Assembly: GCF_014279995.1 (NCBI RefSeq)
Contig: NZ_CP047935.1
Location: 321,243-345,242, forward strand
Source of the DNA: Synechococcus sp. BIOS-E4-1
GTDB lineage: Bacteria; Cyanobacteriota; Cyanobacteriia; PCC-6307; Cyanobiaceae
Length of the DNA: 24,000 bases
Reading direction: 5' to 3'
The translations under genes and the position numbers were made by a program. The notes under the pieces were generated by a model. It made no database searches, was not told the DNA's origin, and saw only the letters and a program-made list of their open reading frames with translations. Every line of letters begins with the position of its first letter. Positions within the stretch are counted from its first letter, which is position 1. Shown piece by piece: positions 1-21,942 of the stretch.

Positions 1-46
1 ATTTTCGGTAACTGGATTAATTTGATAATTTTTAGTCATTGTTTTT

Positions 47-1195: not shown

Positions 1196-3135
1196 GTTTC
1201 CTTACCCAAGGTATTTGGTCATCTGAAGAGGAAACCGTTCCTTTGCTTCACAGAATGACCAATCGAATTGTCAACCGTGGCCCCGACAGTGCTGGTTATT
1301 GGCATGATTCGGATGCTGGTATTGCTCTTGGGCATCGTCGTCTTTCTGTAGTTGATTTATCGCCTGCGGGAGCTCAGCCTATGCACTCCGCATGCGGGCG
1401 TTATGTCATGGCCTTCAACGGTGAGATCTATAACCATCTTGAGCTACGCGAATTACTGGGCAACTCACTGTGGCGGGGACATTCTGATACTGAGACTGTT
1501 TTAGAGGCTTTCAGTTCTTGGGGCATTATAAGTACTTTACAACGTTGTAATGGTATGTATGCCATTGCATTATGGGATAAAAAAGAACGAACACTTACCT
1601 TGGCTCGGGATCGTATTGGTGAGAAACCACTTTATTATGGATGGCAGGGTCAAGGTGCGAACAGCTGTTTTTTATTCGGCTCTGAGTTAAATGCTCTCAA
1701 GGCTCATCCATCATTCTCTACTGTTATTAACCGTGATGCATTGTCTTTGTACATGCGTCATAACTATATCGCATCTCCCCACTCCATTTACCAAGGTATT
1801 CATAAGCTAACGCCGGGTTGTTTCCTTACTATTTCTCTTTCTTTGCAAGAGCCCGACGAGATATCTTATTGGTCTCTTCCTTTGGTTGCGCAGCATGGAG
1901 TTACACAACCGTTTACAGGTTCTGATGATTCAGCCATAGATACTCTGGAATCTTTACTTAAAGATTCCGTGCGGCAGCAAATGGTCGCCGATGTTGATCT
2001 CGGTGCATTCCTGTCTGGCGGTATTGATTCCTCTACGGTTGTTGCGTTGATGCAAGCACAGTCTAATCGACCAGTAAAAACCTTCACAATTGGATTCAGT
2101 GAAGATGCCTACAACGAGGCTATCTACGCCAAAGCCGTGGCTAAGCATCTCGGCACGGAGCATACTGAACTTTATGTCACGCCCCAGCAGGCACTTGACG
2201 TTATCCCTAAATTGCCAAATCTTTACAATGAGCCATTTGCTGACTCTTCTCAAATTCCAACTTTCTTAGTTAGCCAATTGGCTAGCCAATATGTGACCGT
2301 TTCTCTTTCCGGTGATGCTGGAGATGAACTATTTTGCGGTTATGGCCGTTACATGTTCACTCGCAGTCTTTGGGATCGTATCCGTATTTTGCCATTGCCT
2401 TTCCGCAAGATCCTTGAGGCTGGAATTACTGGCTTGTCACCTGCTCATTTGAATATTCTTTTGGCTCCACTGAAGTTATTCAAATCATATTCTCTCCGTA
2501 AAGGAAATTTAGGCGATAGATTGCACAAAGCAGCTGGCCTTTTAGCCTCGCCCAGTTTAAACTCATTATATCTTGACTTAGTTACTCATTGGGTTCCCAA
2601 TGATTTAGTCCTAGGGGCTAATGAACCCTTAACTTATCTGAGTGGTAACAACCTGGCATTATCGGGTCTTGATTCCATGCAGCGCATGATGGCGCTTGAT
2701 ACTCTTTCATATTTACCTGACGATATTTTAGTTAAAGTCGATCGTGCAGCTATGGGTGTTTCGCTTGAAACCCGTTTGCCCTTTTTAGACCAACGTGTTG
2801 TGGAGTTTGCCTGGCAACTTCCGCAAGATCTCAAGATGCGCGGTGGTGCTGGAAAGTGGGCGCTTCGTCAGGTTCTCAATCGTTATGTACCAAGTGAACT
2901 AATTGACCGCCCAAAAATGGGTTTTGGAGTACCTCTTGATGACTGGCTACGAGGTCCATTACGTGATTGGGCTGAAGATCTTTTGTGTGAATCGCGCATG
3001 CGCCAAGAGGGTTACTTAAACCCTGAACCTATCCAAAGGAAATGGGCTGAGCATGTGAGTGGTACCCGTAATTGGCATTACCACTTATGGGATGTGTTGA
3101 TGTTTCAGTCCTGGCTTAGATGCCATAGTTCCTAG
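1180..3135 (+). CDS. Asparagine synthase (glutamine-hydrolysing) family amidotransferase, WbpS/WbtH-like, in a polysaccharide context
   Basis: 651-aa ORF beginning MCG; Cys2 is the class-II glutamine amidotransferase nucleophile. GATase-II N-domain motifs are present (HRRLSVVDLSPAGAQPM, FNGEIYNH). The synthetase domain has the PP-loop LSGGIDSSTVVALM. ATG 1180 overlaps the upstream stop (1193-1195), suggesting translational coupling. Confidence 0.9.
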   Translation: MCGLVGFLTQGIWSSEEETVPLLHRMTNRIVNRGPDSAGYWHDSDAGIALGHRRLSVVDLSPAGAQPMHSACGRYVMAFNGEIYNHLELRELLGNSLWRGHSDTETVLEAFSSWGIISTLQRCNGMYAIALWDKKERTLTLARDRIGEKPLYYGWQGQGANSCFLFGSELNALKAHPSFSTVINRDALSLYMRHNYIASPHSIYQGIHKLTPGCFLTISLSLQEPDEISYWSLPLVAQHGVTQPFTGSDDSAIDTLESLLKDSVRQQMVADVDLGAFLSGGIDSSTVVALMQAQSNRPVKTFTIGFSEDAYNEAIYAKAVAKHLGTEHTELYVTPQQALDVIPKLPNLYNEPFADSSQIPTFLVSQLASQYVTVSLSGDAGDELFCGYGRYMFTRSLWDRIRILPLPFRKILEAGITGLSPAHLNILLAPLKLFKSYSLRKGNLGDRLHKAAGLLASPSLNSLYLDLVTHWVPNDLVLGANEPLTYLSGNNLALSGLDSMQRMMALDTLSYLPDDILVKVDRAAMGVSLETRLPFLDQRVVEFAWQLPQDLKMRGGAGKWALRQVLNRYVPSELIDRPKMGFGVPLDDWLRGPLRDWAEDLLCESRMRQEGYLNPEPIQRKWAEHVSGTRNWHYHLWDVLMFQSWLRCHSS

Positions 3136-3152
3136 ATGAACAATTTGGAGCT

Positions 3153-4274
3153 ATGAGGGTTCTTGTTATTGCAGGATTTGCGGAGTCTCTGCTTAATTTC
3201 AGAGGGCCTTTGTTATCCGCCATGATTGCTCGTGGGCTTGAAGTGCATGTGGCAGCTCCCAATCTGTTTGAAGACTTTTGTATTCGTAAGAAGCTTGAAT
3301 TACTTTCTTTAAACTTGCATGATATTTGCTTGTACAGAGCCAGTACAAATCCTCTCACCGATTTGAAATTGCTTTGCTCTTTAACTCTGCTTATCCGAAA
3401 AATTCAGCCCGATTTTGTTCTAAGTTATACCATCAAGCCTGTTATTTATGGGACTATTGCTTCTTGGCTTGTTGGTGTTCCCCGCCGTTGTACTCTAATA
3501 ACTGGTTTAGGTTACGCATTCACTGGGAATGCTGGAGGTGTTCGTGGTTTAGTCAAAATAGTTGTACAGAGCTTATATAAGCTGGCTTTATTCCGTTCAC
3601 ATAAGGTCTTTTTTCAAAATAATGACGATTATGATTTGTTTCGTACACTGGGATTGATCACTAATCGAACTTCAACTGTAGTTGTTAATGGCTCTGGTGT
3701 TGATTTGGAATTCTTTTCAGTAGCGCCACTACCCTTGGGACCTCCACATTTTTTGATGATTGCACGACTTTTGGGGGACAAGGGTGTACGTGAATATGCG
3801 CAAGCTGCTCAGCAGCTCAAAGCGAAGTGGCCAGACATTGAATTTTCTCTTGTAGGGTGGTTGGATCAAAATCCAGATTCTATATCTCAATCTGAGTTGG
3901 ATTCTTGGATACAATCTTCTAGCCTCAATTATTTAGGTCGTCTACAGGATATTCGTCCTGCTATGCGTCAATGCAGTGTTTATGTTTTGCCTAGCTACCG
4001 AGAAGGTATGCCACGTACTGTGCTCGAGGCCATGGCTATGGGTCGTGCTGTCATTACTACCCATGCTCCCGGTTGTCGCGAAACAGTTGTTGAGGGTGAA
4101 AATGGTTTTTTGGTGCCAATTAAGTCAATAGACGTGTTGGTTTCTGCCATGGAACGATTCATTTATGAACCGCAATTAGCTCATAGGATGGGGCGGCGCG
4201 GCAGAGAACTTGCCGAAGAACGTTTTGATGTCAATAAGATTAATGATGTTATGCTTACCAATATGGGACTTTGA
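3153..4274 (+). CDS. Glycosyltransferase, GT4 (GT-B fold)
   Basis: 373-aa ORF with the C-terminal motif LPSYREGMPRTVLEAMAMGRAVITTHAPGCRETVVEGENGFLV, typical of Glycos_transf_1. It starts 17 nt after the asnB-like stop, with GGAG just upstream of the ATG. Confidence 0.85.
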   Translation: MRVLVIAGFAESLLNFRGPLLSAMIARGLEVHVAAPNLFEDFCIRKKLELLSLNLHDICLYRASTNPLTDLKLLCSLTLLIRKIQPDFVLSYTIKPVIYGTIASWLVGVPRRCTLITGLGYAFTGNAGGVRGLVKIVVQSLYKLALFRSHKVFFQNNDDYDLFRTLGLITNRTSTVVVNGSGVDLEFFSVAPLPLGPPHFLMIARLLGDKGVREYAQAAQQLKAKWPDIEFSLVGWLDQNPDSISQSELDSWIQSSSLNYLGRLQDIRPAMRQCSVYVLPSYREGMPRTVLEAMAMGRAVITTHAPGCRETVVEGENGFLVPIKSIDVLVSAMERFIYEPQLAHRMGRRGRELAEERFDVNKINDVMLTNMGL

Positions 4275-4639
4275 TTAATCAATCTGGCTGCGATTTGTCA
4301 CGTTGACTTCTTGGTTTAAAAATTACCAGTTATTGACTTGTTGATTTTTCTCTTCATTCTCTCAATAATGTTTTTTAGGTCTATCCAGTCATGCTGTTGT
4401 TTGCAACGGTTACATTGATTCCGCATATTGGTTTTGTTGAGTTTCGTTCAAGTGTTGTGAATGTTTGGTTTCACAGCCTCGTGTGTCCAAATTGATGTAC
4501 AATGTCACTGCTAATCTTTACAAGCATATTAAACTTTTGAGATGGCCTCTTATTCTTGTAAGTCAATTCGACGCCCACGTTGTCTTTTGTATTCTGTTTT
4601 CATGAAAGCTGCATCCGGTGTAGATAGTCAAAGTCCTCA

Positions 4640-5827
4640 ATGATTTCGATTAGTCATTCAAAATGGCCTGGCAGGCCTACCTCGCTTCTGCCTTTAACCA
4701 TTCTTTTTGCCATATTTTTCTCTTTTATTTTCTGCTCGATTAGCAATTTCCTAGTTCCTCCCCCCGATGCAGTTAGCTATAGCCTGGTTGGGGCTACTAA
4801 AAACTTTGCTGAATTCTCTGCTGGTTCTTATCACTTCGGCTACTATCTTTTCAATATACTAATTGTCTCTCTATCTGATTTCGTTGGCTTAAGCGCATCT
4901 TCATTGATTGTAATCACAAATGTAGCTTGTTCCTATGTCTCAGTGTATTTTCTCGTTCGATTTCTAGATCTTCTTCTTTTTAGGCTTAATGCTAATATCA
5001 TTCTTTCTGATTTCTTTGTTCCAAATAGAACTAGATCTTTTTTGTTTTTGCTTTCGCCTTTAAGCCCTTTCATCGCTTGGATACCATACAATCTAAAGGA
5101 TTGTCAGGTTGTGGCGCTTTCTAGTATTATGATTTACTCTATATGTTTTGTTTTTGAATCTATTTTTTCCGGAAATGTTTTTTCTTGGAAAGTCTTTTGG
5201 ACGGCCTTTCTTTTTGTTTTTGCATTTTCGTATAATTTTACATTGCGTTCGTACTTTGCCTTTTCGGTGACTGTTTTTAGCCTCTTGTTTTTCTACCTAT
5301 TAACTAATAAGTTTTCAGCGTCACCTGTTATCAGATTTGTATTTCAAAAGTCCCAATTATTTGCATTTACTGGTGTTATGCTTGCCTCCATGGTGATTCT
5401 TATTTTAACCTCTGACCTATTTTACTCTAGGTTTATTGCATTTTCGAACTTCTCTTTTGTCAATATTGCGACTATATTTTTAAATTTAGTTAAATTTCTT
5501 TGGGGTCCTCTTTTATGGAGTGTTTCACCATCTTACCCGCTGTTGTATGTGTCAACTGTACTAAATATTGTTTTGTGGGTTGGATTTGGTTATCTTTTGA
5601 TTCTCAAATCTTCTGATCCTTTTCGAATAAGGTTGTGTGCATTAGCCCTGTTATTTATGATAGTCATTGCATTGCCCTACTGTATTTATGACACTCAGGT
5701 TGGTCCTAGGTACAGGTTCTTTGCTGAAATGATTCTATATGTTTGCTGTGTATATGGATTCTATGGACGCACCAGCAAAGCTATTGAGAATGATAATACC
5801 AATTCATTTCTAATTTTTAAGCATTGA
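4640..5827 (+). CDS. Polytopic inner-membrane protein (~10-12 TM); candidate Wzy-type polymerase or GT-C-type glycosyltransferase, function unassigned
   Basis: 395-aa ORF, extremely Phe/Leu/Ile/Ser-rich, with ~12 hydrophobic segments read by eye. About 35% GC. I see no Wzy_C/O-antigen-ligase-type motif. After TM1 there is a PPPDAVSY loop faintly reminiscent of the first-loop Asp of GT-C enzymes. Its position inside a glycan locus is the main argument for function. Confidence 0.6.
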   Translation: MISISHSKWPGRPTSLLPLTILFAIFFSFIFCSISNFLVPPPDAVSYSLVGATKNFAEFSAGSYHFGYYLFNILIVSLSDFVGLSASSLIVITNVACSYVSVYFLVRFLDLLLFRLNANIILSDFFVPNRTRSFLFLLSPLSPFIAWIPYNLKDCQVVALSSIMIYSICFVFESIFSGNVFSWKVFWTAFLFVFAFSYNFTLRSYFAFSVTVFSLLFFYLLTNKFSASPVIRFVFQKSQLFAFTGVMLASMVILILTSDLFYSRFIAFSNFSFVNIATIFLNLVKFLWGPLLWSVSPSYPLLYVSTVLNIVLWVGFGYLLILKSSDPFRIRLCALALLFMIVIALPYCIYDTQVGPRYRFFAEMILYVCCVYGFYGRTSKAIENDNTNSFLIFKH

Positions 5828-6360
5828 CGTTTTTCTGTCCATTAATTACTTTGCATGGTTTGCTGTCTTGGTTTTATCTTTTTCTAGTCGTTAGTTTAAT
5901 TTAGTATGCTTCTTAATTTCTACATTCACAGTTGCCAAAATAAGCGTGTTTATGTCTCGGGTTCTTTTTTTGTTTCTAGCGCATTTTGTGATTTTAGTTT
6001 TTGCGTATATTCTTTGTGGGTGTTGTTTTACTTAAGTTCTCATCTCACCTCTTTCGTGGTAGTTTAAAGCCTGTCTTGTATCTTTTTTCTTTTCTGGCCT
6101 TTTGCATGATATTCAACTATGGCAAGACCATTCTTTGGGAGCCCATTGCACTATTTTGCTGTTGTTGAAGTGAGTAAAGGGCCGATCAGCTTTGTCTGTC
6201 TTTCGCCTATTGCAATGCTTGCTTGTGATCTGGCAGGTGTATGTTATCAATCACTCCTGCCATTATAGCATCTCTAGCGTATATATTGTTGCTTCTTTGT
6301 GTTGTTAATTGCTGTTGTTTGATGAATCCCTCCCGCAGCTTGAGACCTTCTAATCGACCG

Positions 6361-6960
6361 ATGAAATCCTTTTTTGATCGATTGTTTGCTCTGCTTAGTC
6401 TTTTTATTCTTTCGCCTCTGTTTATTGTTACGGCCTTATTGGTGCGTTGGCGACTCGGAACTCCTGTTCTGTTCAGGCAACAGCGCCCTGGCTACCGCGG
6501 AAAGCCTTTCTGGCTTTTGAAGTTCCGAACCATGAGGAATGCCTGTGATGCTGGCGGCGCTTTACTTCCTGATGCTCAGCGGCTTACACCTTTCGGTCGC
6601 TGGCTTCGCGCTACTTCGATTGATGAGCTTCCAGAGCTGATCAATATCTTGCGCGGCGAAATGAGCTTCATTGGCCCCAGGCCCTTGCTGATGCAATATC
6701 TCCCGTTATATTCTCCCCAGCAGGCTCGCCGACACGACGTGAAACCCGGCTTCAGTGGTTGGGCCCAGATCAATGGACGTAATTCTATCTCCTGGGATGA
6801 GAAGTTCCGCCTAGATGTCTGGTACGTCGATCACCAAAGTTTTAGGTTGGATCTACTCATCTTTTTGCTAACGATCTGGAAGGTGATCCGTCGCGAAGGC
6901 ATCAGTGCACGTGGCGAAGCAACAGTTCAGTATTTCAAAGGTTCTCCTTCAAATGACTAA
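6361..6960 (+). CDS. Small monotopic phosphoglycosyltransferase (Bac_transf family, PglC/WbtB-like; undecaprenyl-phosphate sugar-1-phosphate transferase)
   Basis: The ORF track gives 6241-6960. The family-typical N-terminus MKSFFDRLFALLSLFILSPLFIVTALLV (re-entrant helix) starts at ATG 6361, with an alternative ATG at 6322. Signatures present: PVLFRQQRPGYRGKPFWLLKFRTM and the catalytic Asp-Glu dyad region SIDELPELINILRGEMSFIGPRP. Confidence 0.9.
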   Translation: MKSFFDRLFALLSLFILSPLFIVTALLVRWRLGTPVLFRQQRPGYRGKPFWLLKFRTMRNACDAGGALLPDAQRLTPFGRWLRATSIDELPELINILRGEMSFIGPRPLLMQYLPLYSPQQARRHDVKPGFSGWAQINGRNSISWDEKFRLDVWYVDHQSFRLDLLIFLLTIWKVIRREGISARGEATVQYFKGSPSND

Positions 6961-7741
6961 AATTCTTTTTATGGGTCGTAAGAAAGTTGCCGCGAAGTGC
7001 TTAAGGTGGCTTCATTCTTTGCCTGAGGTGGAGATAGTCGCCACCGTTACTGACAGTCATCTTGAGGGTTCAGTGACTGCTGTTTTGTCTGCCGAGCTTG
7101 GGATCCCTTTATTGGATTACGACTCTGCAATGGAGCGCGCGTTTGAACTGGACATTGATCTTGGTATTTCTGTCCTTTATTGGCGTAAACTAAAAGGGGC
7201 GCTGCTTTTCCCCCAAAGTAAGCATGGTTGTGTAAATTTTCATCCAGCACTTTTACCTCAATACAAGGGTTGTGCGGGATATAACCTCGCCATCATGGAT
7301 GGTTTGTCTCAGTGGGGCTCGACGTGCCATTACGTCGACGAGGAAATCGATACTGGCGGAATTTTGGATGTCCAGAAATTTAACGTCGATTCCGATTTTG
7401 AAACGGCTCTCTCTCTCGAGGCTAAAACTCTCAATGTTATGGAGCAGCAGTTCAGGAGGGTGATTCAGGCAATCCTTGCTTCGCCAAATGGTCGTCTTTC
7501 TGTTTCTCCAAATATTGGTGGTAAGTATGTCTCACGTTTTCAAATGGAAGAGTTAAAGCAAATTTTGCCTGGCGAGGATCCTGATAGAAAGTCCAGAGCT
7601 TTTTGGTTTCCTCCTTATTGTGGTGCGTGGGTTGAAGTGAATGGTCAAAGAGTAAATGTCATCCCGGATTGTGTTCTTCGCGCAATGGGTGATCCCACAG
7701 CTACAAGTTTGTTTGCAGACCCTTGTGTCGGGAAAATTTGA
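6953..7741 (+). CDS. N10-formyl-THF-dependent formyltransferase, sugar N-formyltransferase-like (WbtJ/WlaRD/VioF size class)
   Basis: The ORF track gives 6905-7741. The likely start is ATG 6953 (MTKILFMGRKKV), which overlaps the upstream TAA (6958-6960) by 8 nt. The Formyl_trans_N catalytic signature Asn-x-His is present (VNFHPALLPQYKGCAG), as is the downstream Asp (HYVDEEIDTGGILD). At 262 aa it is shorter than Met-tRNA formyltransferase. Confidence 0.8.
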   Translation: MTKILFMGRKKVAAKCLRWLHSLPEVEIVATVTDSHLEGSVTAVLSAELGIPLLDYDSAMERAFELDIDLGISVLYWRKLKGALLFPQSKHGCVNFHPALLPQYKGCAGYNLAIMDGLSQWGSTCHYVDEEIDTGGILDVQKFNVDSDFETALSLEAKTLNVMEQQFRRVIQAILASPNGRLSVSPNIGGKYVSRFQMEELKQILPGEDPDRKSRAFWFPPYCGAWVEVNGQRVNVIPDCVLRAMGDPTATSLFADPCVGKI

Positions 7742-7849
7742 CGAAAGTAATTGTTAATCGATGTTAGCGTTTACTTGCGTGCAGTGTCGTGGCGGAGCTA
7801 TTTTTGCTGATTGTCTGTTTGATGGACGTTAGTTTAAGTCCTTTTTTGT

Positions 7850-9028
7850 TTGCTTCCTCAAGTGATTCTACCTCTCTGGCCTTCGTTTGATGCTGAACAA
7901 ATTGCAGTCGCCAGCCAGGTTCTCGCCTCAGGAAAAGTAAACACCTGGACCGGCAATGAGACAAGGGCTTTTGAGGACGAGTTTGCTCTATGGTCCGGCA
8001 CTAGTCATGCTATTGCCTTAGCCAATGGCTCTTTGGCCCTTTCCGCTGCCTATTTGGCTGTTGGTCTCGGCCAGGGCGATGAGCTGATTACTACGCCACG
8101 CACTTTTATCGCTACTGCCTCAAGCGCCGTACTTCTTGGTGCAAAGCCGATCTTCGCGGATGTCGATCCGAATTCCGGAGCGATCACAGCCTCCACCATT
8201 GCTCCGCTGATCACCCCTCGTACCAAGGCTATTGCTGTGGTGCATTTAGGCGGCTGGCCTGCTGATATGCCAGCGATCTGCGATCTTGCCCGAGCTCATG
8301 GCATCGCCCTTATTGAGGACTGTGCGCAGGCACATGGGGCTCGCATTAACGATCAGTCAGTGGGCAGCTTCGGCGATGTGGCGGCTTGGAGCTTCTGTCA
8401 GGACAAGATCATGTCCACCGCGGGTGAAGGTGGAATGGTGAACACCTCGCGCCCTGAACTCTGGGATGCGATGTGGTCTGTCAAGGACCATGGCAAAACC
8501 CATGATGCTGTCTTCGGACGAGATCACCAATCAGGCTTTCGCTGGCTGCATGAACGCTTCGGTTCTAATTTCCGCCTCACTGAGCTGCAAAGCGCCATCG
8601 GTCGTGTTCAGCTTCAGCGCCTTCAAGAATGGACCTTTACTCGCACTCGTAATGCTCTCTTGCTCGCGGAAGCACTGGGTGATTTTCCCTCAGTGCGTGT
8701 GCCCCGACCGCCAGAGCATCTCACCCACGCTTGGTATAAATTTTATGCTTTCGTAGAGCTCGAGGCCATGGCCGATGGCTGGAGCCGTGATCGCGTTCTT
8801 TCGGAGATTGCTTCACTCGGGTATCCCGCTCTCTCGGGTAGCTGTAGCGAGGTCTATCTGGAGAAATGCTTTCAGGATGCTGGGCTGGCTCCAGCCGAGC
8901 GTCTGCCTGTGGCTCGGATGCTCGGTGAAACCAGTCTGATGTTCTTGGTGCACCCGACCATTACCCCTCATCAGATGGAAGGCTACGCCGACGCTGTCCG
9001 ATCAGTTGTTCAACGAGCCTGCCGATGA
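7850..9028 (+). CDS. DegT/DnrJ/EryC1/StrS-family PLP-dependent sugar aminotransferase (PglE/WbtI-like)
   Basis: 392-aa ORF. Family motifs present: NGSLALSAAYLAVGLGQGDELITTPRTFIAT, the DCAQAHGA region, and the PLP-lysine region SFCQDKIMSTAGEGGMV. The start is uncertain (TTG 7850 or GTG 7862). GC is host-like. The stop forms ATGA with ATG 9025. Confidence 0.9.
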   Translation: MLPQVILPLWPSFDAEQIAVASQVLASGKVNTWTGNETRAFEDEFALWSGTSHAIALANGSLALSAAYLAVGLGQGDELITTPRTFIATASSAVLLGAKPIFADVDPNSGAITASTIAPLITPRTKAIAVVHLGGWPADMPAICDLARAHGIALIEDCAQAHGARINDQSVGSFGDVAAWSFCQDKIMSTAGEGGMVNTSRPELWDAMWSVKDHGKTHDAVFGRDHQSGFRWLHERFGSNFRLTELQSAIGRVQLQRLQEWTFTRTRNALLLAEALGDFPSVRVPRPPEHLTHAWYKFYAFVELEAMADGWSRDRVLSEIASLGYPALSGSCSEVYLEKCFQDAGLAPAERLPVARMLGETSLMFLVHPTITPHQMEGYADAVRSVVQRACR

Positions 9029-9073
9029 ACGTGCGTTTCGCCTCTGTTTGGGCTGCGCAGCCACTGACTGGCA

Positions 9074-9083
9074 CCCCCCCCCC
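9074..9083 (+). repeat. C10 homopolymeric tract at the frame junction in the 5' end of the dehydratase gene
   Basis: Direct read of the sequence: gca + cccccccccc + tcatt. It is the longest homopolymer I found in the window. The ATG-9025 frame and the main dehydratase frame differ by one nucleotide exactly here. Confidence 0.95.
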
Positions 9084-9130
9084 TCATTCGCAGACTCCTG
9101 CTCATCGGCATTGATGCGCTCCTACTGCCT

Positions 9131-10909
9131 TTGGCGGTATGGCTGAGTTTCTGGTTCCGTTTGGCGCATCCCCTTCATCCCAACTTCATCTCTGCTGGTA
9201 GTTGGATTTTGATCAGTAGCCTCTTCATTGGATTGCCTCTCTATGCATACACCGGGCAATACAAAGGCCTCACCCGCTACGTGGGCAGTGCTGCCTTCTA
9301 TCCCCTCGCCGGGCGCAACGGACTGCTCGTGCTCTTGTTGGCTGGCATCGGCGTGATGCTGCGGCTGCCGATGCCGCCCCGCAGCAGCTGGATCCTGTTG
9401 TGGTTGCTGCTGACAGGCTTCACAGGGGCGGTGCGCTTTGCCTTGCGAGATATGTTGCTCAATTTGCGTTCTACTCAGCACAAGCAGCAGTTGCGTGTCG
9501 CCATCTACGGCGCCGGTCAAGCCGGTGCCCAGTTGGCGGCCGCCTTGCGGCTTGCCGGCAACCACAGGATCGTCGCCTTCCTCGACGACAACCCGGCCTA
9601 TTGGAGTCGTTCGATCAACGGTGTTGCAATCCAACCGCCCCAGAAATTGATGGAAATGGAGGATTCCATTGATCAGGCGCTCCTGGCGATTCCTTCTCTT
9701 CCCCGTAGTGAACGGCGTCGCATTGTCGAGGGCCTTCAGAGTCTTGGCATCCCCGTATTGCAGGTGCCGTCGGTGGATGACCTCACCTCCGGTCGCGCCC
9801 GTATCGATGCTCTGCGTCCAATCGCGATTGAAGATCTGCTTGGTCGCGATGAGGTGCCAGCCGATCCACAGCTGCTTGGCCCAGGCATTCGTGATGCCGT
9901 GGTCTTCGTCACCGGTGCTGGCGGCTCGATTGGTTCGGAGCTCTGCCGCCAGATCCTGGGGTTGTTTCCAGCGCGGTTGATTCTTCTGGAAAGCAGCGAG
10001 CCGGCGCTCTATGCCATCGAGCAGGAACTCTGTTTGTCGTTGCCTGATGGAGTGGCGCTTCAAGCAGTTCTTGGCAGTGCCACTAACCCGCAGTTGTTGC
10101 AGCGCTTGTTTGATGAGCAGGCGGTGGAGCTTGTGTTCCATGCCGCTGCTTACAAGCATGTCCCCCTCGTGGAGGCCAATCCGTTGGCAGGCCTGGCCAA
10201 CAACGTGGGTTCTACGGATCAGGTGTGCCGCGCCGCAGTCGCCAGCGGGGTGAGGAAGGTAGTGCTGATCTCCACTGACAAAGCCGTGCGCCCCACCAAC
10301 GTGATGGGAGCATCCAAGCGTCTGGCCGAATTGGTGGTTCAAGCCCACTCTGCTGAGTCCACCAGCACCTGTTTGTCCATGGTGCGCTTTGGCAATGTGC
10401 TCGGCTCCTCAGGCTCGGTGGTGCCCTTGTTTCGCCGCCAGATCGCTGCCGGTGGTCCGATCACCCTCACCCATCCGGAGATCATCCGCTATTTCATGAC
10501 CATCCCTGAGGCGACCACGTTGGTGATTCAGGCCTCCGTGCTCGCCCAAGGTGGAGATGTGTTCCTCCTCGACATGGGCGAACCGGTACGGATCAAAGCC
10601 CTGGCTGAGCAAATGGTGCGGCTGAGTGGTTTATCCCTGCGTGATGCAGCCTATCCCGATGGTGACATAGAGATCGTTTGCACTGGTTTACGCCCTGGCG
10701 AGAAACTCTATGAGGAGCTGCTGATCGATGCTGAATCCCAGCCCACCGCCCATCCGTTGATCTACCGGGCAATGGAACGATCCTTACCTCCTCATGAACT
10801 CTGGCCCAAATTAGATGCTTTGAATAGAGCGTTTGCAGCGCAGGATGTGGAAGCAGCGCTCAAGGTTTCGGCGGAGCTGGTGCCTGAATGGCGAAGGGCC
10901 AAGCCTTGA
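9131..10909 (+). CDS. Membrane-anchored nucleotide-sugar 4,6-dehydratase/epimerase (Polysacc_synt_2 family; PglF/WbpM/CapD/WbtA-like); 5' end disrupted relative to ATG 9025
   Basis: 592-aa ORF from TTG 9131. It has N-terminal TM helices, two Rossmann motifs (VAIYGAGQAGAQLA and VFVTGAGGSIGSELCRQI), and the active-site region LISTDKAVRPTNVMGASKRLAE (the Thr-Asp-Lys arrangement of PglF-type enzymes). Conserved N-terminal sequence (LIRRLLLIGIDALLLP) is encoded in frame upstream of 9131 (9083-9130) but has no canonical start codon. See the C10 finding. Confidence 0.9.
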   Translation: MAVWLSFWFRLAHPLHPNFISAGSWILISSLFIGLPLYAYTGQYKGLTRYVGSAAFYPLAGRNGLLVLLLAGIGVMLRLPMPPRSSWILLWLLLTGFTGAVRFALRDMLLNLRSTQHKQQLRVAIYGAGQAGAQLAAALRLAGNHRIVAFLDDNPAYWSRSINGVAIQPPQKLMEMEDSIDQALLAIPSLPRSERRRIVEGLQSLGIPVLQVPSVDDLTSGRARIDALRPIAIEDLLGRDEVPADPQLLGPGIRDAVVFVTGAGGSIGSELCRQILGLFPARLILLESSEPALYAIEQELCLSLPDGVALQAVLGSATNPQLLQRLFDEQAVELVFHAAAYKHVPLVEANPLAGLANNVGSTDQVCRAAVASGVRKVVLISTDKAVRPTNVMGASKRLAELVVQAHSAESTSTCLSMVRFGNVLGSSGSVVPLFRRQIAAGGPITLTHPEIIRYFMTIPEATTLVIQASVLAQGGDVFLLDMGEPVRIKALAEQMVRLSGLSLRDAAYPDGDIEIVCTGLRPGEKLYEELLIDAESQPTAHPLIYRAMERSLPPHELWPKLDALNRAFAAQDVEAALKVSAELVPEWRRAKP

Positions 10910-11176
10910 CAAGAGCTGTGCCTATCTACCCCTCATTGAGCAAGTGTTGAGTGCTCCGAGACCTCTGTCGCTCCGTATGCTCATGTAGTAATCCCTGTCA
11001 TGCAAGCCGAAGCTGGGGAATTGCGTCTTCAGCCTTTTTCGATGAAAAATGAGCGAGCTTGTCGTCTAGCGTCCCGACGAAGTGGTGCCTCTTCTGCAGA
11101 CCACCGCTAAGGGACGTTTCGCCTCTAGGAATCAGCGATAACCTTCCAGCGTTTGACGGCTTAGCCCCATCTTTTA

Positions 11177-12619
11177 ATGCCAGTTGCTTCAATTCGCTCT
11201 ATTTGTTGCATCGGTGCTGGTTACGTTGGCGGACCGACCATGGCAGTCATTGCCGACCGCTGCCCTGAAGTACAGGTCACAGTCGTAGATATCAACCAAA
11301 CCCGCATCGATGCCTGGAATAACAGTGATCTGAACATGCTGCCGGTGTACGAGCCAGGCTTGGATGCCGTTGTTGGGCGTGCGCGAGGCCGAAACCTGCA
11401 TTTCTCAACGGCTGTGGACGAGGCGATCGGCGCAGCAGATATGGTTTTTATTTCCGTCAACACTCCCACCAAAACCAAGGGTTTGGGAGCTGGTCAGGCC
11501 AGTGATCTGCGTTGGGTGGAAGCCTGCGCCCGTCAGGTTGCTAAGTCGGCAGTGGGTCACACGATTGTGGTGGAGAAAAGCACCCTGCCGGTGCGTACCG
11601 CAGAAGCGGTCAAGGCCATTCTCTCTGCTGCGCAGCAATCCTCCGCGGGTACCGAATGCAGTTTCGCGGTGCTGTCCAACCCTGAATTTCTCGCCGAAGG
11701 CACCGCGATCCCTGATCTTGAGTCGCCGGACCGGGTGCTGATCGGCGGCGAAAGCCCTGAGGCCATTGACGCTCTGGCATCGGTGTATGCACAGTGGGTG
11801 CCGCAGGAGCGCATTCTGCGCACCAACCTTTGGAGCAGCGAACTCTCCAAGCTCACCGCGAATGCCTTTTTGGCTCAACGGATTAGCTCGATCAACTCTG
11901 TTGCAGCTCTCTGTGAAGCCACTGGTGCTGATGTGCGCGAGGTGGCCCGCGCGGTTGGCAGCGACAGCCGAATTGGTTCCAAATTTTTGCATGCTGGGCC
12001 GGGCTTTGGTGGCAGTTGCTTCCAGAAAGACATCCTCAACCTGGTTTATCTCTGCAGGCATTTCGGGCTCCCTGATGTAGCCAACTACTGGGAGTCAGTG
12101 GTGCAGCTGAATAGCTGGCAACAGCACCGCATTGCTCGCTTGGTGGTGCAGAAACTGTTCGGTACCGTCACCGGCAAACGCCTGGCCATCCTTGGTTTTG
12201 CCTTCAAGGCCGACACCAACGACACCCGCGAAGCTCCGGCGATCCGCATTGCTAAGGATTTATTGGAAGAGGGCGCTCAGCTCGCAATCCATGATCCCAA
12301 GGTTGATTCGGATCAAATTGCTCGTGATCTGAATTTGGCAGCCAGCACTGCACCGGATGCTGAGTCGGGCCCTACGCGTGCCGCACTCAGCGGTGAGGGC
12401 ACTTGGTGGCCCAGTAACGAAATTGACTCGGCCTTGAAGGGAGCTGATGCTGTGCTCATCCTCACGGAGTGGAGCCAGTACAGAGAACTCGATTGGGCAG
12501 TACTGGCTCCATTGATGCGTCATCCCGCCTGGGTGTTTGATGCCCGCTCGATGGTCACACCGGCAGAGGTTCAGGCCGCCGGTCTTTATCTCTGGCGTGT
12601 GGGTGAGGGTCAGTCATGA
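11177..12619 (+). CDS. ugd: UDP-glucose 6-dehydrogenase
   Basis: 480-aa ORF starting at ATG 11177. It has the N-terminal NAD fold [18 protein letters not shown] and the catalytic Cys motif [12 protein letters not shown]. The C-terminal UDP-binding domain includes [17 protein letters not shown]. This is the long (~480 aa) UGDH class. Confidence 0.92.
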
Positions 12620-13390
12620 AACGCCCTGTTTTGGTTACGGGTGCTGCTGGTTTCATCGGTGCTGACCTCTGTCTGCGTTTATCGGAACGCGGCGAACTAG
12701 TCGTCGGTATCGACAATCTCAACAGTTACTACGATCCCCAACTCAAGCCGCACGCCTCGCTCGCATGGATTCAGTAGCTCCAACTGATTCCTGCCGTTCT
12801 ATGAGCAGCAGCCTGTGAACCACCCTGTAAGCCTGTATGCCGCAAGCAAGAAAGCCAATGAGCTAATGGCTCATACTTACAGCCATTTGTATGGCCTGCC
12901 TGCAACTGGACTGCGTTTTTTCACCGTGTATGGCACCTGGGGGCGGCCGGATATGGCGCCGATGCTCTTCGCCAAGGCGATCCTCGCGGGCGATCCGATC
13001 AAGGTGTTTAACCACGGAAAGATGCAGCGTGATTTCACTTATATCGACGACATCGTTGAAGGGGTGCTGCGCTGCTGCGATAAACCTGCGACGGCTAATA
13101 CAGAATTTGATCCTCTGCAGCCCGATCCAGCTACTGCCGCAGCTCCTCACCGGGTGTTCAACAATGGCAACAGCCAGCCCACTGAACTTCTGCGCTTCAT
13201 TGAAGTGATGGAACAGGCGTTAGGGAAAGCAGCGATCAAGGATTTTCAGCCGATGCAGCCTGGTGATGTGGTGGCCACTGCTGCAGACACTCAGGCCTTG
13301 GAGGATTGGGTTGGGTTCCGCCCCAGCACGTCGATCGAGTTTGGAGTGGGTTGTTTTGCCAGTTGGTATCGCAATTTTTACGGCGTCTGA
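12616..13390 (+). pseudogene. UDP-glucuronate 4-epimerase-type NAD-dependent epimerase (SDR), decayed by internal deletion plus frame disruption
   Basis: ATG 12616 is ATGA-coupled to the ugd stop. It opens [44 protein letters not shown] and hits TAG at 12775-12777. A different frame resumes at about 12790 with FLPFYEQQPVNHPVSLYAASKKANELMAHTYSHLYGLPATGLRFFTVYGTWGRPDMAP, containing the YxxxK catalytic motif, and runs to 13390. The Tyr lies only ~73 codons from the ATG, against ~150-170 in intact homologues as I recall them, so roughly 270 bp are missing. Confidence 0.75.
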
Positions 13391-13420
13391 GTGTTATTGC
13401 CACTGGGCTGAACCTTTCCT

Positions 13421-14188
13421 ATGGCCTACTGGCTTAGCAAAATCCTGCCCCTGGCTCTGTTGCCTCTTGGCCTCAGTCTGATCCTGCTGCTGGTCGGCTT
13501 GATCGGTCGCTTGCGCTGGCCGGTGATCACTGCAGCGGTGCTGCTTTGGCTGTTTTCTCTGGGATTGGTGAGCCAGATCCTTTGGCGCTGGTTGGAGTCA
13601 CCTTGGCAGCGCCAATCCGCAGCCAAAGCGGCGTCGGCTGATGCGATCGTTGTGCTCAGTGGCGGACGTCACCCCGTGCCAGGAGCAGCGCGCGTTAGCG
13701 AGTGGCATGACCCTGATCGCTTCTTCGCTGGGCTTGAGCTTTATCGCTATGGCAAAGCACCTCTCTTGTTATTTACCGGGGGTGTCAGTCCTTTTCGACC
13801 CGGTGAACAACCGGAAGGGCAGCGTTATTTGGTGGAAGCTCAACAGCTCGGCATCCCTGCTTCGGCGATGGAGACCACGCTGCCGGTGGTCAATACTGCG
13901 CAAGAAGCCAATGCAATTTACAAGCTGTTGCAGGGTTCTGATCGCTTGGACAGCAGCCCAAGCATTCTTCTAGTTACCAGTGCATTTCATATGCGCCGAG
14001 CCCAACGCTTGTTTGAACGTCAGGGTTTGAGGGTGGTGCCATTCCCGGTGGATTTCCAGGCCCGTGGCAATTGGGCAGGGCCTCTTTGGCGCGATCCCAT
14101 TCAGTGGATTCCGACCGCTGGTGCTCTTGATGGCAGTTCCCGCGCTTTACGTGAATTGCTTGGGCGACTGGTTTATCGGACTTGGTAG
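13421..14188 (+). CDS. DUF218 / YdcF-ElyC-family protein with N-terminal membrane anchor
   Basis: 255-aa ORF. N-terminal TM segments (ILPLALLPLGLSLILLLVGLIG, VITAAVLLWLFSLGLV) are followed by DUF218-like motifs: DAIVVLSGG, LLLFTGG, and LLVTSAFHMRRAQRLFERQGLRVVPFPVD. Confidence 0.8.
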   Translation: MAYWLSKILPLALLPLGLSLILLLVGLIGRLRWPVITAAVLLWLFSLGLVSQILWRWLESPWQRQSAAKAASADAIVVLSGGRHPVPGAARVSEWHDPDRFFAGLELYRYGKAPLLLFTGGVSPFRPGEQPEGQRYLVEAQQLGIPASAMETTLPVVNTAQEANAIYKLLQGSDRLDSSPSILLVTSAFHMRRAQRLFERQGLRVVPFPVDFQARGNWAGPLWRDPIQWIPTAGALDGSSRALRELLGRLVYRTW

Positions 14189-14256
14189 GTGTTCCAATAT
14201 TTTTTGATCAAGTAATTTAATTTCTTATGACGTTGATTGATCGCAAATAAGCCCAT

Positions 14257-14279
14257 AAAAAAACCAGGATTAGACCCGG
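14257..14279 (-). terminator. Possible intrinsic terminator of psbEFLJ
   Basis: On the minus strand, ~30 nt after the psbJ stop, the sequence reads CCGGG-tctaat-CCTGG followed by T7. This is a 5-bp stem including one G-U pair. It lies in the AT-rich convergent gap between the DUF218 gene and psbJ. The stem is weak, so confidence is low. Confidence 0.3.
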
Positions 14280-14311
14280 AATTTTTGTTTCGAATGAAAG
14301 TGTCAAAAAAG

Positions 14312-14515
14312 TCAGGCCGAACCAACTCCCGTGTAAGACCCGTAAAAGAACAGTCCAACAACAAAAATGGCAGCCATGCCACCAGCTGTTGCCACCAGCC
14401 AGAGGGGAAGAGCTCCTTCAGTCCAGCGTGAGCGCCATTTGACAGCTGGAGAACCATCAGGAAGACGGTCAGGAATACGTCCGTCTGGCAAATTGCCTGC
14501 ATTCTTAGGCTTCAT
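14312..14515 (-). CDS. psbJ: Photosystem II protein PsbJ (long N-terminal form)
   Basis: 67 aa. The C-terminal region [32 protein letters not shown] is the PsbJ TM helix. It is the last gene of the psbE-F-L-J order. Confidence 0.9.
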
Positions 14516-14526
14516 GATTTAAAACC

Positions 14527-14646
14527 TCAGTTGAAGAAGTAGCTGGAGAACAAAATGCCGGTGACGAACACGAACAGCAATCCGAGATAGAGGCTGGTTC
14601 TGTTGAGTTCAACAGGCAAGGTGTTGGGATTTTTGTTGCGCTCCAT
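14527..14646 (-). CDS. psbL: Photosystem II protein PsbL
   Basis: Absent from the ORF track because it is under 60 aa. Hand translation of the minus strand gives [39 protein letters not shown] followed by a stop (39 aa), the canonical PsbL sequence. Confidence 0.93.
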
Positions 14647-14666
14647 GATGAGTCAGATCTGTTGAA

Positions 14667-14804
14667 TCAACGACGGATGAACTGCATGGCTGCCAGAGCA
14701 CCCAAGAAAAAGACGGTTGGGACGCCCAGGGTATGGAGCGCAAGCCAACGGACCGTGAAGATCGGATAAACGCGAGGCTTAGAGGTGGTTGGAGACTGGG
14801 TCAT
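14667..14804 (-). CDS. psbF: Cytochrome b559 beta subunit
   Basis: Absent from the ORF track. Hand translation gives [45 protein letters not shown] followed by a stop (45 aa), with the haem-ligand His in the RWLALHTL context. It starts 9 nt after the psbE stop. Confidence 0.95.
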
Positions 14805-14813
14805 GGATGGGAA

Positions 14814-15065
14814 TTACTTGTTCAGGCGGACATCGAGGTCGGATTTGCCTTCGAATCGCTGGCTGAGAACGGGTGCTTTGCCTTCATTGACCTGGAAATA
14901 TGCATCCGGTCGGGGAGTTCCAAAGGCGTCGTAGGCAAGACCTGTCGACACAAACAGGAAGCCTGCAAGGAAAATGGAAGGCAGCGTGATGGCGTGGATC
15001 ACCCAGTAACGGATGCTGGTGATGATCTCGAAAAACGGGCGTTCACCCGTAGAGCCTCCAGCCAT
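14814..15065 (-). CDS. psbE: Cytochrome b559 alpha subunit
   Basis: 83 aa: [53 protein letters not shown]..., the canonical PsbE sequence with the haem-ligand His (RYWVIH). Confidence 0.95.
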
Positions 15066-15171
15066 AAAAAAGATCCTCTGTCTTGCGAGATCCTAAGTGC
15101 ATAGGGCTCATCTCCGCGCATGACCCTTCTGGTTGGTTACGAAGAGTTGTTGGTCGAAGGGGGGAAACGAT

Positions 15172-16182
15172 TCAAGTCAGCGCGGACCAACGCAGCATCA
15201 GACCCCTTTCACCCAGCAGGAATACATGCTGTTGGCGATCAGTGTCGTCGAAGACAAAGCGCGTGAAATTGGTTGGAGCCTGCACGCTTTCAGGATCGCG
15301 CTCCCAACTGTTGCCTTCGTCTCGGCTGACGAGAAGGGTGCCGTTGCCACCGCTGGCCCAGATCGCGCCGTCATCAGACCAGGCCATGTCCAGGTACCCA
15401 TAGCCATTAGTGATGGGGATGATTGGCTTGCTCCAGTTTTCTTTGTCAGAGGCGTCTTCGTTGAAGCGAATCTGAGCACCGCGAGCCACCATCCAGAGCC
15501 GGCCATCGGGCTGGTAGCCGATGCTCTGAAGACGTTGGCTGCTGACCCGTTGGTGAACCTGCCAGACCGGTTGTCCGGGATCCCAGGTGGCATAGAAGTT
15601 GCCAAGGCTGCTCACGCTCACGTAGGCACCATCAGGGCTTCGGCGCAGGTCACGTGTTGCACCTGCCGCATCGCTCACCTCAGCGTCCCAGCTGCCACCA
15701 CCGTCGCTGGTTCGGTAGACAGCCCCCACGTTGGTGGCCAGTTCGGCGCTGTTGGGGCCAAGGGCAGTGATCAGATAAGGCTCTCCTGGCAGCTTGGTGT
15801 CCAGGAACAGTCGCGTCCAGTTCTGTCCAGCGTCGGTGGTGTGCATCAGCAGGCCGGGCTGACCGGCGATCCAGCCGTCATCACCATCAAAAGCGATGCT
15901 GATCAGGCGGAAATTCTCTTCCTCCGGCAGATCCAGACTGCGTTCGTTCCAGCTCGCGCCACCATCGTTGCTCTCCAGAATCAGGCGATTGCTGCCCACC
16001 AGGAAGCCATGGTCGGCGCTGGTGAAAGCAATGTCCAGCGGATTGGCCTGGGTGTTGAGATCAATCACCTGCCAGGGGCTGGCGGTCGCTGTTGGAACTT
16101 TGGTGGTCACACAACCACCAAGACCGAAGCCGATGCAGACCACAAGTGCTAACTGGGCCAGGGATTTGATCAGGGAATTCAT
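15172..16182 (-). CDS. ycf48: Photosystem II assembly/stability factor Ycf48 (HCF136), lipoprotein
   Basis: The ORF track gives 15172-16215. The likely start is ATG 16182 (MNSLIKSLAQLALVVCIGFGLGGC), a signal peptide with an LGGC lipobox. Beta-propeller repeats of the type SxDGGxSW / TxDxGxxW recur (SNDGGASWNE, TTDAGQNWTR, TSDGGGSWDA, SRDEGNSWER). It has conserved synteny with rubA and psbEFLJ. Confidence 0.9.
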   Translation of the reverse strand: MNSLIKSLAQLALVVCIGFGLGGCVTTKVPTATASPWQVIDLNTQANPLDIAFTSADHGFLVGSNRLILESNDGGASWNERSLDLPEEENFRLISIAFDGDDGWIAGQPGLLMHTTDAGQNWTRLFLDTKLPGEPYLITALGPNSAELATNVGAVYRTSDGGGSWDAEVSDAAGATRDLRRSPDGAYVSVSSLGNFYATWDPGQPVWQVHQRVSSQRLQSIGYQPDGRLWMVARGAQIRFNEDASDKENWSKPIIPITNGYGYLDMAWSDDGAIWASGGNGTLLVSRDEGNSWERDPESVQAPTNFTRFVFDDTDRQQHVFLLGERGLMLRWSALT

Positions 16183-16260
16183 GCCGGATTGAGAATGAAG
16201 GCAGGCTTGGAGCAATGCGGGTGATTCAGCGCGAAACCATCTGCGCAGATGAATCAGCGC

Positions 16261-16728
16261 TTAACGCAGGGAATACAACGAGAGGAAGAACGCAAATCCA
16301 AGAGCCAAACTGCCAAAGATCAGCACATTCTTCTGGCCTGGAGTCAAGCGGTTGACACCCAGTCCGAAATCGAGATTTTCTTCAAAACCGCTGGCCTTGG
16401 AGCGCGGGCCGATGTCGCGGAAGGCGCCAACTTTGCTGCGGCAGACGGGACAGCGAAACGTGAAAGCATCCAACTGTTGAAATGGAGTGCCTGTTTCGAT
16501 ACGCAATTTTTTGACGCCTTCTTCAGGGTCGTAAACGAATCCGCAGCTTCTGCACTCGAAGCGGTGCGTGAGTGGATCACTGGCTTGTTCCGCCAGAGTT
16601 TTCTCAGGGGCGCGAACCTTGGCCTCAGTTGAGATCTGCTCAGAGGGATCCGCTTCTGAGCCTGTCTGCTCGTCGTCAGTGATGCTCTCACTCGCAGGGT
16701 CCTGCGGTGCCTGTATTTCGTCGCTCAC
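16261..16728 (-). CDS. rubA: Membrane-anchored rubredoxin RubA with an extended acidic N-terminus
   Basis: 155 aa from GTG 16728. The rubredoxin Cys pairs are CRSCG and CPVCR, and there is a C-terminal TM anchor ([18 protein letters not shown]). It sits directly upstream of ycf48, as in other cyanobacteria. Confidence 0.9.
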
Positions 16729-16829
16729 CGCTGACTGACCGAAGGGATGACACTCTATCTGCGTTACCCGGCCAAACGTCAGCCAGAGGCTGTAAATGCC
16801 AGACTGAATCGCACATTGGTGCTGCCCAG

Positions 16830-17192
16830 ATGTTTGTGCTCCCGGGCTATGACGCCTTCCTGGGCTTTCTGTTGATCGCCGGAGCTGTGCCTGTGCTGGC
16901 TTTGGTGACCAACAAGCTTGTTTCCCCGCGCAGTCAGGTCGGTGAGCGCGAGCTCACCTATGAATCGGGCATGGAGCCGATCGGTGGGGCTTGGATCCAG
17001 TTCAACATCCGCTACTACATGTTTGCGCTGGTCTTCGTGATCTTCGATGTGGAGACGGTTTTTCTCTACCCCTGGGCCGTGGCATTCCACCGACTAGGTA
17101 TTTTGGCTTTCATAGAAGCGTTGGTGTTCATTGCCATCCTCGTGGTGGCTTTGGCCTATGCCTGGCGTAAGGGCGCCCTGGAGTGGAGCTGA
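16830..17192 (+). CDS. ndhC: NAD(P)H-quinone oxidoreductase (NDH-1) subunit 3
   Basis: The ORF track gives 16707-17192. The canonical N-terminus [18 protein letters not shown] starts at ATG 16830 (120 aa). Conserved NdhC/NuoA core: [40 protein letters not shown]. Confidence 0.95.
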
Positions 17193-17196
17193 TCCC

Positions 17197-18006
17197 ATGA
17201 CCTCATCCATTGAACGAGCTGCAACAACCGGGGATGCCCCCTCAATCCAGGCCGTTCGCGACCTGAGGGAATCCAGTTGTGGGCCAGTGGCTGGTGCTGC
17301 TGATGGGGTGCCGACGGTTACTCAGGACCTCAGTGAAAACATCATTCTCACCAGTCTTGATGATCTGCACAACTGGGCCCGATTGAGCAGTCTCTGGCCA
17401 CTTCTCTACGGAACAGCGTGCTGTTTCATCGAATTCGCTGCCTTGCTGGGCTCCCGTTTCGATTTCGACCGCTTTGGTCTTGTGCCACGAAGTTCACCTC
17501 GCCAGGCAGACCTTTTGCTGGTTGCTGGCACAGTCACCATGAAAATGGCGCCTGCATTGGTGCGTCTGTATGAGCAGATGCCCGAACCCAAATATGTGAT
17601 TGCCATGGGTGCTTGCACCATCACCGGTGGCATGTTCAGTGCAGACTCGACCACTGCGGTTCGTGGTGTGGACAAGCTGATTCCGGTTGACCTTTATCTT
17701 CCCGGCTGTCCGCCAAGGCCTGAGGCGATCTTTGATGCTGTGATCAAGCTGCGCAAAAAAGTAGCCAATGAATCCGTGGCCGATCGCCGTCTGTTGATGC
17801 AAACCCATCGCTACTGCACGGTGGAGCATGCGATGACTCCTGTTGAGCCGATCGTCACCGGCGCTTACCTGCGTGCTGAAACACAGGTCGCCGCTCTCAA
17901 GCCTGGTGCCGGTTTGCCGATGCCCGCCCTGGAGACTGCCCAACACGAGAGGGGCGAAGCCGAAATGGTCGAAGCCGAGACCGTCACGATCCCCGAAGAG
18001 TCATGA
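17197..18006 (+). CDS. ndhK: NDH-1 subunit K (NuoB homologue, Fe-S)
   Basis: The ORF track gives 17131-18006. ATG 17197 lies 4 nt after the ndhC stop. Conserved motifs: [29 protein letters not shown] and [10 protein letters not shown] (the N2-cluster Cys ligands). Confidence 0.93.
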
Positions 18007-18605: not shown

Positions 18606-18656
18606 TTTCGAAAAAACATTTCGCTTCTTGAGTCCTTGAGATTCGGGCGCGTCGAA

Positions 18657-20018: not shown

Positions 20019-20186
20019 GGCCCGGATGCGTTGACGGCGTCCGCGGTGGCTGGGGCTGGTCAAGTGCAATCCGGGGCCGGGGTCGTCGCTTCCCTTGCGA
20101 TGAGAGAACTGTACGGAAGTTGTTCTTGATGGCCATCCCCTTCGCTGCAAACAAGGCAAGATGGGCCTCTGACGCGCAAAAGCCCC

Positions 20187-20999: not shown

Positions 21000-21002
21000 G
21001 CC

Positions 21003-21932: not shown

Positions 21933-21942
21933 TGCTGCAAAG

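Follow-up and report, generated by a model that had tools for sequence, protein, structure and literature searches.

Where does the sugar dehydratase gene in the glycan island of the marine cyanobacterium Synechococcus sp. BIOS-E4-1 begin, and can it still be read from there? The question arises in a 24,000-nucleotide (nt) stretch of the genome (contig NZ_CP047935.1, positions 321,243 to 345,242 of the forward strand; hereafter the window, in whose numbering all positions are given), where a run of ten C lies between the only start codon coupled to the preceding gene and the long open frame of the dehydratase. BIOS-E4-1 is a reference strain for the CRD1 clade, and in picocyanobacteria resistance to phages and grazers is attributed to surface-glycan islands. 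We found that the deposited gene is cut from its native start by a single inserted base, and we weigh below how that base may have come to be there.

A native start codon separated from its gene by one base

The gene is predicted to encode a membrane-anchored UDP-GlcNAc 4,6-dehydratase of the PglF/WbpM type. The 592-amino-acid (aa) product of its open reading frame (ORF) matches a BIOS-E4-1 protein, QNI52888.1, at 100% identity. It contains a short-chain dehydrogenase/reductase domain of the Polysacc_synt_2 family (PF02719) that spans profile positions 1-291 of 293 (E 1.2e-110), and its closest solved structure is that of C. jejuni PglF/WlaL (5BJU, E 6e-80). The catalytic motif of the translation, STDKAVRPTNVMGASK, comprises STDK...VMGASK, that is, the TDK...Mx3K signature with Met in place of the catalytic Tyr, which sets PglF/WbpM dehydratases apart (PMC8987622).

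The aminotransferase ORF upstream ends in ...CGATGA, its stop (TGA 9026-9028) overlapping ATG 9025-9027. Translation from this ATG, in what we call frame 1, yields MNVRFASVWAAQPLTGTPPPHSQTPAHRH and ends at TGA 9112-9114. The dehydratase frame (frame 2) is itself closed upstream, at TGA 9065-9067; downstream of that stop it reads LAPPPLIRRLLLIGIDALLLPLAVWLSFWFRLA... and stays open through 10909. Its first ATG, GTG or TTG is TTG 9131, according to the ORF list (9131-10909, 592 aa) and to the codons read by hand. Ahead of that TTG the frame already encodes LAPPPLIRRLLLIGIDALLLP, codons 9068-9130 being CTG GCA CCC CCC CCC CTC ATT CGC AGA CTC CTG CTC ATC GGC ATT GAT GCG CTC CTA CTG CCT. The homopolymer in which the two frames meet (C10) is one base over an in-frame C9, which would read ACC CCC CCC CTC (T-P-P-L); a tract of C9 or C12 would fuse the frames. 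No other homopolymer of the window is as long, and the next run of C or G is 6. A first-order Markov model predicts about 0.02 runs of at least ten C per 24 kb, which would give a few per 3.3-Mb genome; the tract alone is therefore unusual, not extraordinary, and it is the homology flanking it on either side that goes beyond chance.

This homology emerges from the top 120 homologues (identities of 77-100%; nearly all are 616-640 aa long) and from the DNA sequences of four orthologous loci that are independent of one another, namely L082 (JGI), L083 (ENA), L085 (Logan) and L086-88 (ENA/Tara). The homologues share a layout in which a variable tail is followed by (P)xxRR and then by the first transmembrane helix (TM1). 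The first 19 codons of frame 1, MNVRFASVWAAQPLTGTPP, are homologous to the N-termini of P0009, P0014, P0007, P0073 and P0100, a subgroup that matches the frame-1 peptide residue for residue (P0009, MRVRFAFTWAAQLLTGLSPLLRR; P0014, MNVSFAVAWAARPLTDVSPLIRR; P0007, MKLRFASALAVRPLTGFSPLMRR; P0073 and P0100 similar). The N-termini of the orthologues run collinear with these 19 codons ahead of the tract and with the frame-2 codons that follow it. The 19 codons are thus the true N-terminal tail of the dehydratase, and the remainder of the frame-1 peptide is out-of-frame read-through.

The DNA of the orthologous loci tells the same story. In each of the four, a 388-aa DegT gene ends in ATGA and a dehydratase of 627 or 628 aa starts at that ATG. 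The alignment with the window is gapless save for one column, in or beside the C run, where all four orthologues are without one base that the window has. The site reads CTT TCC CCC CTC (L-S-P-L, C6) in L082, GTT TCC CCC CTC (V-S-P-L, C6) in L083, TTT TCC CCT CTC (F-S-P-L, C4) in L085 and ATT CCA CCT CTG (I-P-P-L, C2) in L086-88; the window has ACC CCC CCC (C) CTC (C10), and gives T-P-P-L once one C is removed. A C9 reconstruction of the gene encodes 627 aa and aligns with the 627-aa P0009 over 626 of 626 positions at 85% identity with zero gaps. In it the basic patch of two arginines (RR) is followed by four hydrophobic segments, at about residues 24-44, 54-72, 98-116 and 122-140. These alignments show that ATG 9025, coupled through the ATGA overlap, is where the gene natively starts, and that the deposited sequence bears a +1 insertion in the C tract. 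The present arrangement derives from a 1-nt insertion because the 19 frame-1 codons match orthologue N-termini from the conserved ATGA onwards, and the ancestral tract is C9, encoding Thr-Pro-Pro-Leu.

The comparison likewise shows, on the sequences compared, that the long C tract is specific to BIOS-E4-1. No G or C run longer than 7 occurs in about 52 kb of orthologous picocyanobacterial loci, and the 5' ends of the other close homologues are uninterrupted in 119 cases out of 119. Four homologues with short gene calls (P0003, P0086, P0089 and P0093) were considered as further frameshifts and rejected: their upstream frames are open and contain tail, RR, TM1 and an ATG or TTG start. These short calls are gene-caller start errors, and 5' frameshifting is not recurrent among the homologues compared.

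Much of this had been anticipated in an earlier note made from the window alone. Its positions for the ATG, the stops, the frames, the C run and TTG 9131 all hold on re-reading. So do its views that C10 is the longest homopolymer, that the coupled ATG is the native start, that the gene encodes a PglF/WbpM-type dehydratase with a basic patch and TM1, and that C10 splits two frames which C9 or C12 would fuse. The alternatives it listed, a gene that is switched off or truncated, a non-canonical start or an assembly error, were aptly chosen, as the divergent public annotations illustrate (Table 1). The frameshift is flagged in neither the GenBank nor the RefSeq record. The corrected gene model is a protein of 627 aa read from the ATGA-coupled ATG; the 592-aa and 613-aa models both hide the frameshift.

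Table 1. Positions of the dehydratase features and of neighbouring genes in the window
Feature	Position	Strand	Basis or remark
Bac_transf phosphoglycosyl transferase gene	6241-6960		upstream of the dehydratase
Formyltransferase-like gene	6905-7741	+	PF00551; between phosphoglycosyl transferase and DegT genes
DegT/PglE-like sugar aminotransferase	7850-9028	+	PF01041, E 8.4e-89
Ancestral, translationally coupled ATG start of the dehydratase	9025-9027	+	ATGA overlap; the aligned ATG is the start in 4 independent orthologous loci
29-codon frame-1 remnant ORF	9025-9114	+	translation from ATG 9025
TGA closing the dehydratase frame upstream	9065-9067	+	frame reading
RefSeq WP_186540663.1, 613 aa (MAPPPLIRR...), start CTG 9068	9068-10909	+	open dehydratase frame
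C10 homopolymer, frameshift site	9074-9083	+	exactly ten C; 49 nt past ATG 9025
GenBank coding sequence QNI52888.1, 592 aa, start TTG 9131 (first canonical)	9131-10909	+	submitters' annotation
Putative cytoplasmic region: PglD_N-like linker, then Polysacc_synt_2 catalytic domain with TDK...MGASK; intact	9773-10909	+	PF02719, 5bju, motif
Epimerase N-fragment, 53 aa	12616-12777	+	residues 6-46 of 5u4q_A; ATG overlaps the ugd stop as ATGA
Epimerase C-fragment, 191 aa	12815-13390	+	residues 146-336 of 5u4q_A

Origin and consequences of the extra C

The reading that we favour, with a probability of roughly 0.55, is that the extra C is a real replication-slippage insertion in the cultured strain, through which the full-length enzyme has been lost or strongly reduced. 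If a fixed or culture-acquired mutation and a switching population are taken together, the case for a tenth C that exists in the cells becomes somewhat stronger still. The insertion would be recent, since the other 592 codons are intact and share 85-89% identity with the orthologues. The neighbouring epimerase (12616-13390), which carries a genuine internal deletion, supports real decay in the cluster.

One could picture the following course of events. Replication slippage would add one C to C9, giving C10 and a +1 frameshift. Ribosomes re-initiating at the ATGA junction would then make a 29-aa dead-end peptide that stops at TGA 9112-9114, and the supply of 4-keto-6-deoxy sugar to the branch formed by the DegT aminotransferase, the formyltransferase and the phosphoglycosyl transferase would fall strongly. 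Three routes might leave some residual enzyme. The tRNA-Pro could slip by +1 on the overlapping CCC-C, restoring exactly T-P-P-L, and the Pro-Pro-Pro stretch may add pausing; in E. coli reporters CCC-C gives up to about 1% +1 frameshifting (PMC4519876). Weak initiation at CTG 9068 would provide a protein with a complete TM1. Finally, re-initiation at TTG 9131, 17 nt past the leader stop, would give a TM1-less and possibly catalytically competent product. A passage of PMC8987622, citing Creuzenet and Lam 2001, states that WbpM keeps its activity when reduced to the soluble catalytic region, with no membrane anchor, and the TTG 9131 product could therefore keep some function. C10 is intrinsically hypermutable, so that reversion to C9 should be comparatively frequent. 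On the reading that we favour, the gene is off or weakly expressed, possibly leaky and revertible.

Several observations weigh against a real insertion with these effects. Apart from the extra base the gene is perfectly intact, just as it would be if that base were a sequencing error. The exact C9 (627 aa) and C12 (628 aa) products are both absent from a collection of 15 billion proteins, and there is no independent assembly in either state. The epimerase pseudogene lends only a little weight, because it belongs to a different sugar pathway (UDP-GlcA). The three rescue routes (slippage by +1, initiation at CTG or at TTG) follow the example of other organisms and may not operate here as outlined.

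The first of these points leads to the next best explanation, which we regard as unlikely though deserving of serious attention: a sequencing or assembly error in the consensus. The strain would truly have C9, the gene would be intact from ATG 9025 (627 aa) and the frameshift would exist in the record alone. A single-base lesion in the sole long homopolymer of the window, a classic site of indel miscalls, in a gene whose remainder is intact and highly conserved, is what such an error would produce. Yet Illumina consensus at 10-nt homopolymers is usually reliable. Nor does the window contain any further homopolymer-linked frame break, and the epimerase deletion, a real lesion in the cluster, is impossible as a homopolymer miscall. 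The BIOS-E4-1 genome was assembled from Illumina paired-end and mate-pair libraries, not from 454 or nanopore data, with CLC and manual finishing (PMC7522525). The short reads and the finishing leave some room for error, and BIOS-E4-1 is one of three genomes left with gaps (PMC7522525).

A more attractive possibility, raised in the earlier note, is slipped-strand phase variation: an evolved poly-C contingency locus would switch the dehydratase reversibly ON and OFF, for instance under phage or grazer pressure, and the sequenced clone would be OFF. The configuration is certainly suggestive. A G/C tract of outlying length lies near the 5' end of the coding sequence of a surface-glycan gene that heads its pathway, tract length sets the reading frame, OFF is one slippage step from ON, and the remainder of the gene is intact. 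Comparative evidence lends it no support, however, and we consider it improbable. The tract is not conserved, its counterparts in the orthologues being C6, C6, C4 and C2 with interrupting T or A, and the other 119 close homologues are all uninterrupted at the 5' end. The 5'-end alignment of orthologues that the earlier note had proposed thus bears out the ATGA-coupled start and not a conserved poly-C tract. There is no companion long tract either: apart from C10, the 24-kb window, adjacent glycosyltransferase and glycan genes included, has no G or C run longer than 6.

No tract-length variant is on record, the nearest collection sequence being at 89% identity. A DNA-pattern scan of metagenomes for C7 or longer before CTCATNCGCAGA returned one match, which proved on reading to be an unrelated chance hit. 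Among the matches listed in a genome-collection scan with the reconstructed protein, identities were 38-53%, mostly in Proteobacteria, with a few in Cyanobium and one in Prochlorococcus. Exact look-up of three other window proteins gave no record under those gene models. In a full-text literature search no paper tied phase variation and homopolymers to marine Synechococcus, and the matches were all incidental entries in reference lists; the reading is thus left without precedent in this group, in agreement with the earlier note's remark that the mechanism is not established in marine picocyanobacteria.

It is improbable that BIOS-E4-1 populations, natural and cultured, are mixtures of C9 (ON) and C10 (OFF) cells in which the initiating amino-sugar, and with it susceptibility to phages or grazers, is toggled. 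Were this true, hypermutability at the first committed step would allow resistance to be switched cheaply and reversibly. It would also be the first case of phase variation by a homopolymer to be described from marine picocyanobacteria, albeit one built on a young, strain-specific tract. There is no sign that the tract evolved for switching; on present evidence it is an ordinary homopolymer indel or miscall, a familiar kind of lesion.

Could the gene simply be normal as annotated, with CTG 9068 or TTG 9131 as the native start and the upstream frame-1 similarity irrelevant? Both public annotations chose such starts, and short natural tails before RR do exist (MPPLFRR in P0092, MALPAIFRR in P0046). 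A protein initiated at CTG (MAPPPLIRR) would thus be complete in structure, with the RR patch and all four transmembrane helices retained. We find this very hard to accept. The 19 upstream frame-1 codons, beginning at the conserved ATGA, are clearly homologous to orthologue N-termini. The TTG 9131 product is without the RR patch and without 13 of the 21 residues of TM1, features found in every homologue, and CTG is a very weak bacterial initiator. No promoter-like site was found near the tract, 9068 or 9131, and direct reading revealed no obvious ribosome-binding signal there. The remaining idea, that the gene is expressed by design through programmed recoding, either by a +1 frameshift of the ribosome or by slippage of transcription on the C run, is scarcely credible: CCC-C is a known +1 slippery motif (PMC4519876) and a +1 shift anywhere in the tract restores the exact T-P-P-L junction, but no orthologue requires a shift, all being in frame, the 0-frame has neither a stop nor an obvious hungry codon at the site (CCU CAU UCG follow), and the flanking RNA structure is ordinary (fold z = -0.57).

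The amino-sugar module and its surroundings

The Bac_transf, formyltransferase-like, DegT and dehydratase genes together form a pgl-like amino-sugar module. The orthologous loci carry a PglD-type hexapeptide acetyltransferase in the position of the formyltransferase (L082 1167-1811, L083 541-1185, L086 682-1341). The formyltransferase-like gene suggests an N-formylated, not an N-acetylated, amino sugar in BIOS-E4-1. No ATG is present near the 5' end of the DegT ORF, whose longest version begins at TTG 7850 (392 aa, versus 388 aa in the orthologues), just after a T6 run at 7842-7847.

The module lies at the margin of a glycosyltransferase island whose GC content is low (33-46%). The step in GC content is sharp, from 33-46% in window positions 1-8000, which hold glycosyltransferase, AsnB-like and membrane-protein genes, to 56-66% in 8000-24000, from DegT on. 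Such a step fits a glycan island that was acquired horizontally and now adjoins core-like genes (DUF218, possible glnB, ndhCKJ).

An NAD-dependent sugar epimerase gene, UDP-glucuronate 4-epimerase-like, lies downstream of ugd on the plus strand and is split (12616-13390). About 100 codons are missing, and the two fragments lie about 40 bp apart; the gene is a genuine internal-deletion pseudogene. In the window, ugd and the broken epimerase (11177-13390) stand between the dehydratase and DUF218; in L082 (4884-5691), DUF218 follows directly after the dehydratase. This pair of genes therefore resembles an insertion where the island ends.

Elsewhere in the window, a 395-aa ORF in the lowest-GC stretch (4640-5827, plus strand) has no Pfam match and is possibly a polymerase- or ligase-like membrane protein. 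ORFs of 123, 339 and 127 aa within 14733-16632 have no Pfam match either, and the ORF at 15133-16152 (plus strand) competes with an antisense ORF at 15172-16215 (minus strand).

Implications and comparison with known systems

The UDP-GlcNAc 4,6-dehydratase step of the BIOS-E4-1 glycan island should be treated as possibly inactive in comparative and metabolic readings. The systems closest to it in biochemical terms are PglF (C. jejuni WlaL) and WbpM of P. aeruginosa, which share with the window gene the Polysacc_synt_2 domain, the TDK...Mx3K signature and the N-terminal four-helix anchor; the operon partners, a DegT aminotransferase and a Bac_transf phosphoglycosyl transferase, recall pglE and pglC. 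Unlike PglF and WbpM, the window gene as deposited is cut from its start by a 1-nt insertion. A second difference concerns the N-acyl step: in place of the PglD acetyltransferase, which the orthologous loci do have, the window cluster has the formyltransferase-like gene, and its final sugar probably differs from that of PglF-type systems.

The tract itself invites analogies with the poly-G/C glycan genes of Campylobacter, Neisseria and Haemophilus (Cj1295, lgtA/lgtC, pgl), in which a run of about 10 nt in the 5' coding region likewise places ON and OFF one step apart. These bacteria carry many such tracts, with documented switching. The window, in contrast, has one tract in one strain, unconserved, with no companion tracts and no length polymorphism observed. 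A different parallel is provided by spontaneous +1 frameshifting at CCC-C, in which tRNA-Pro, the m1G37 modification and EF-P are involved. The window tract offers overlapping CCC-C contexts and a Pro-Pro-Pro stretch, and a slip there would give the ancestral protein; the difference is that such slippage is error-level (about 1% or less in E. coli) and has no conserved programmed site, and it may extend to cyanobacteria.

The closest likeness is perhaps to frameshifted genes that are hidden by the annotation of an alternative start, as the GenBank and RefSeq starts, which differ (TTG 9131 and CTG 9068), make plain. Masking of this kind is what annotation ordinarily produces when a frameshift lies close to the 5' end, and the window gene is no exception. 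What is of value here is the corrected gene model; the lesion itself is a new instance of a familiar kind.

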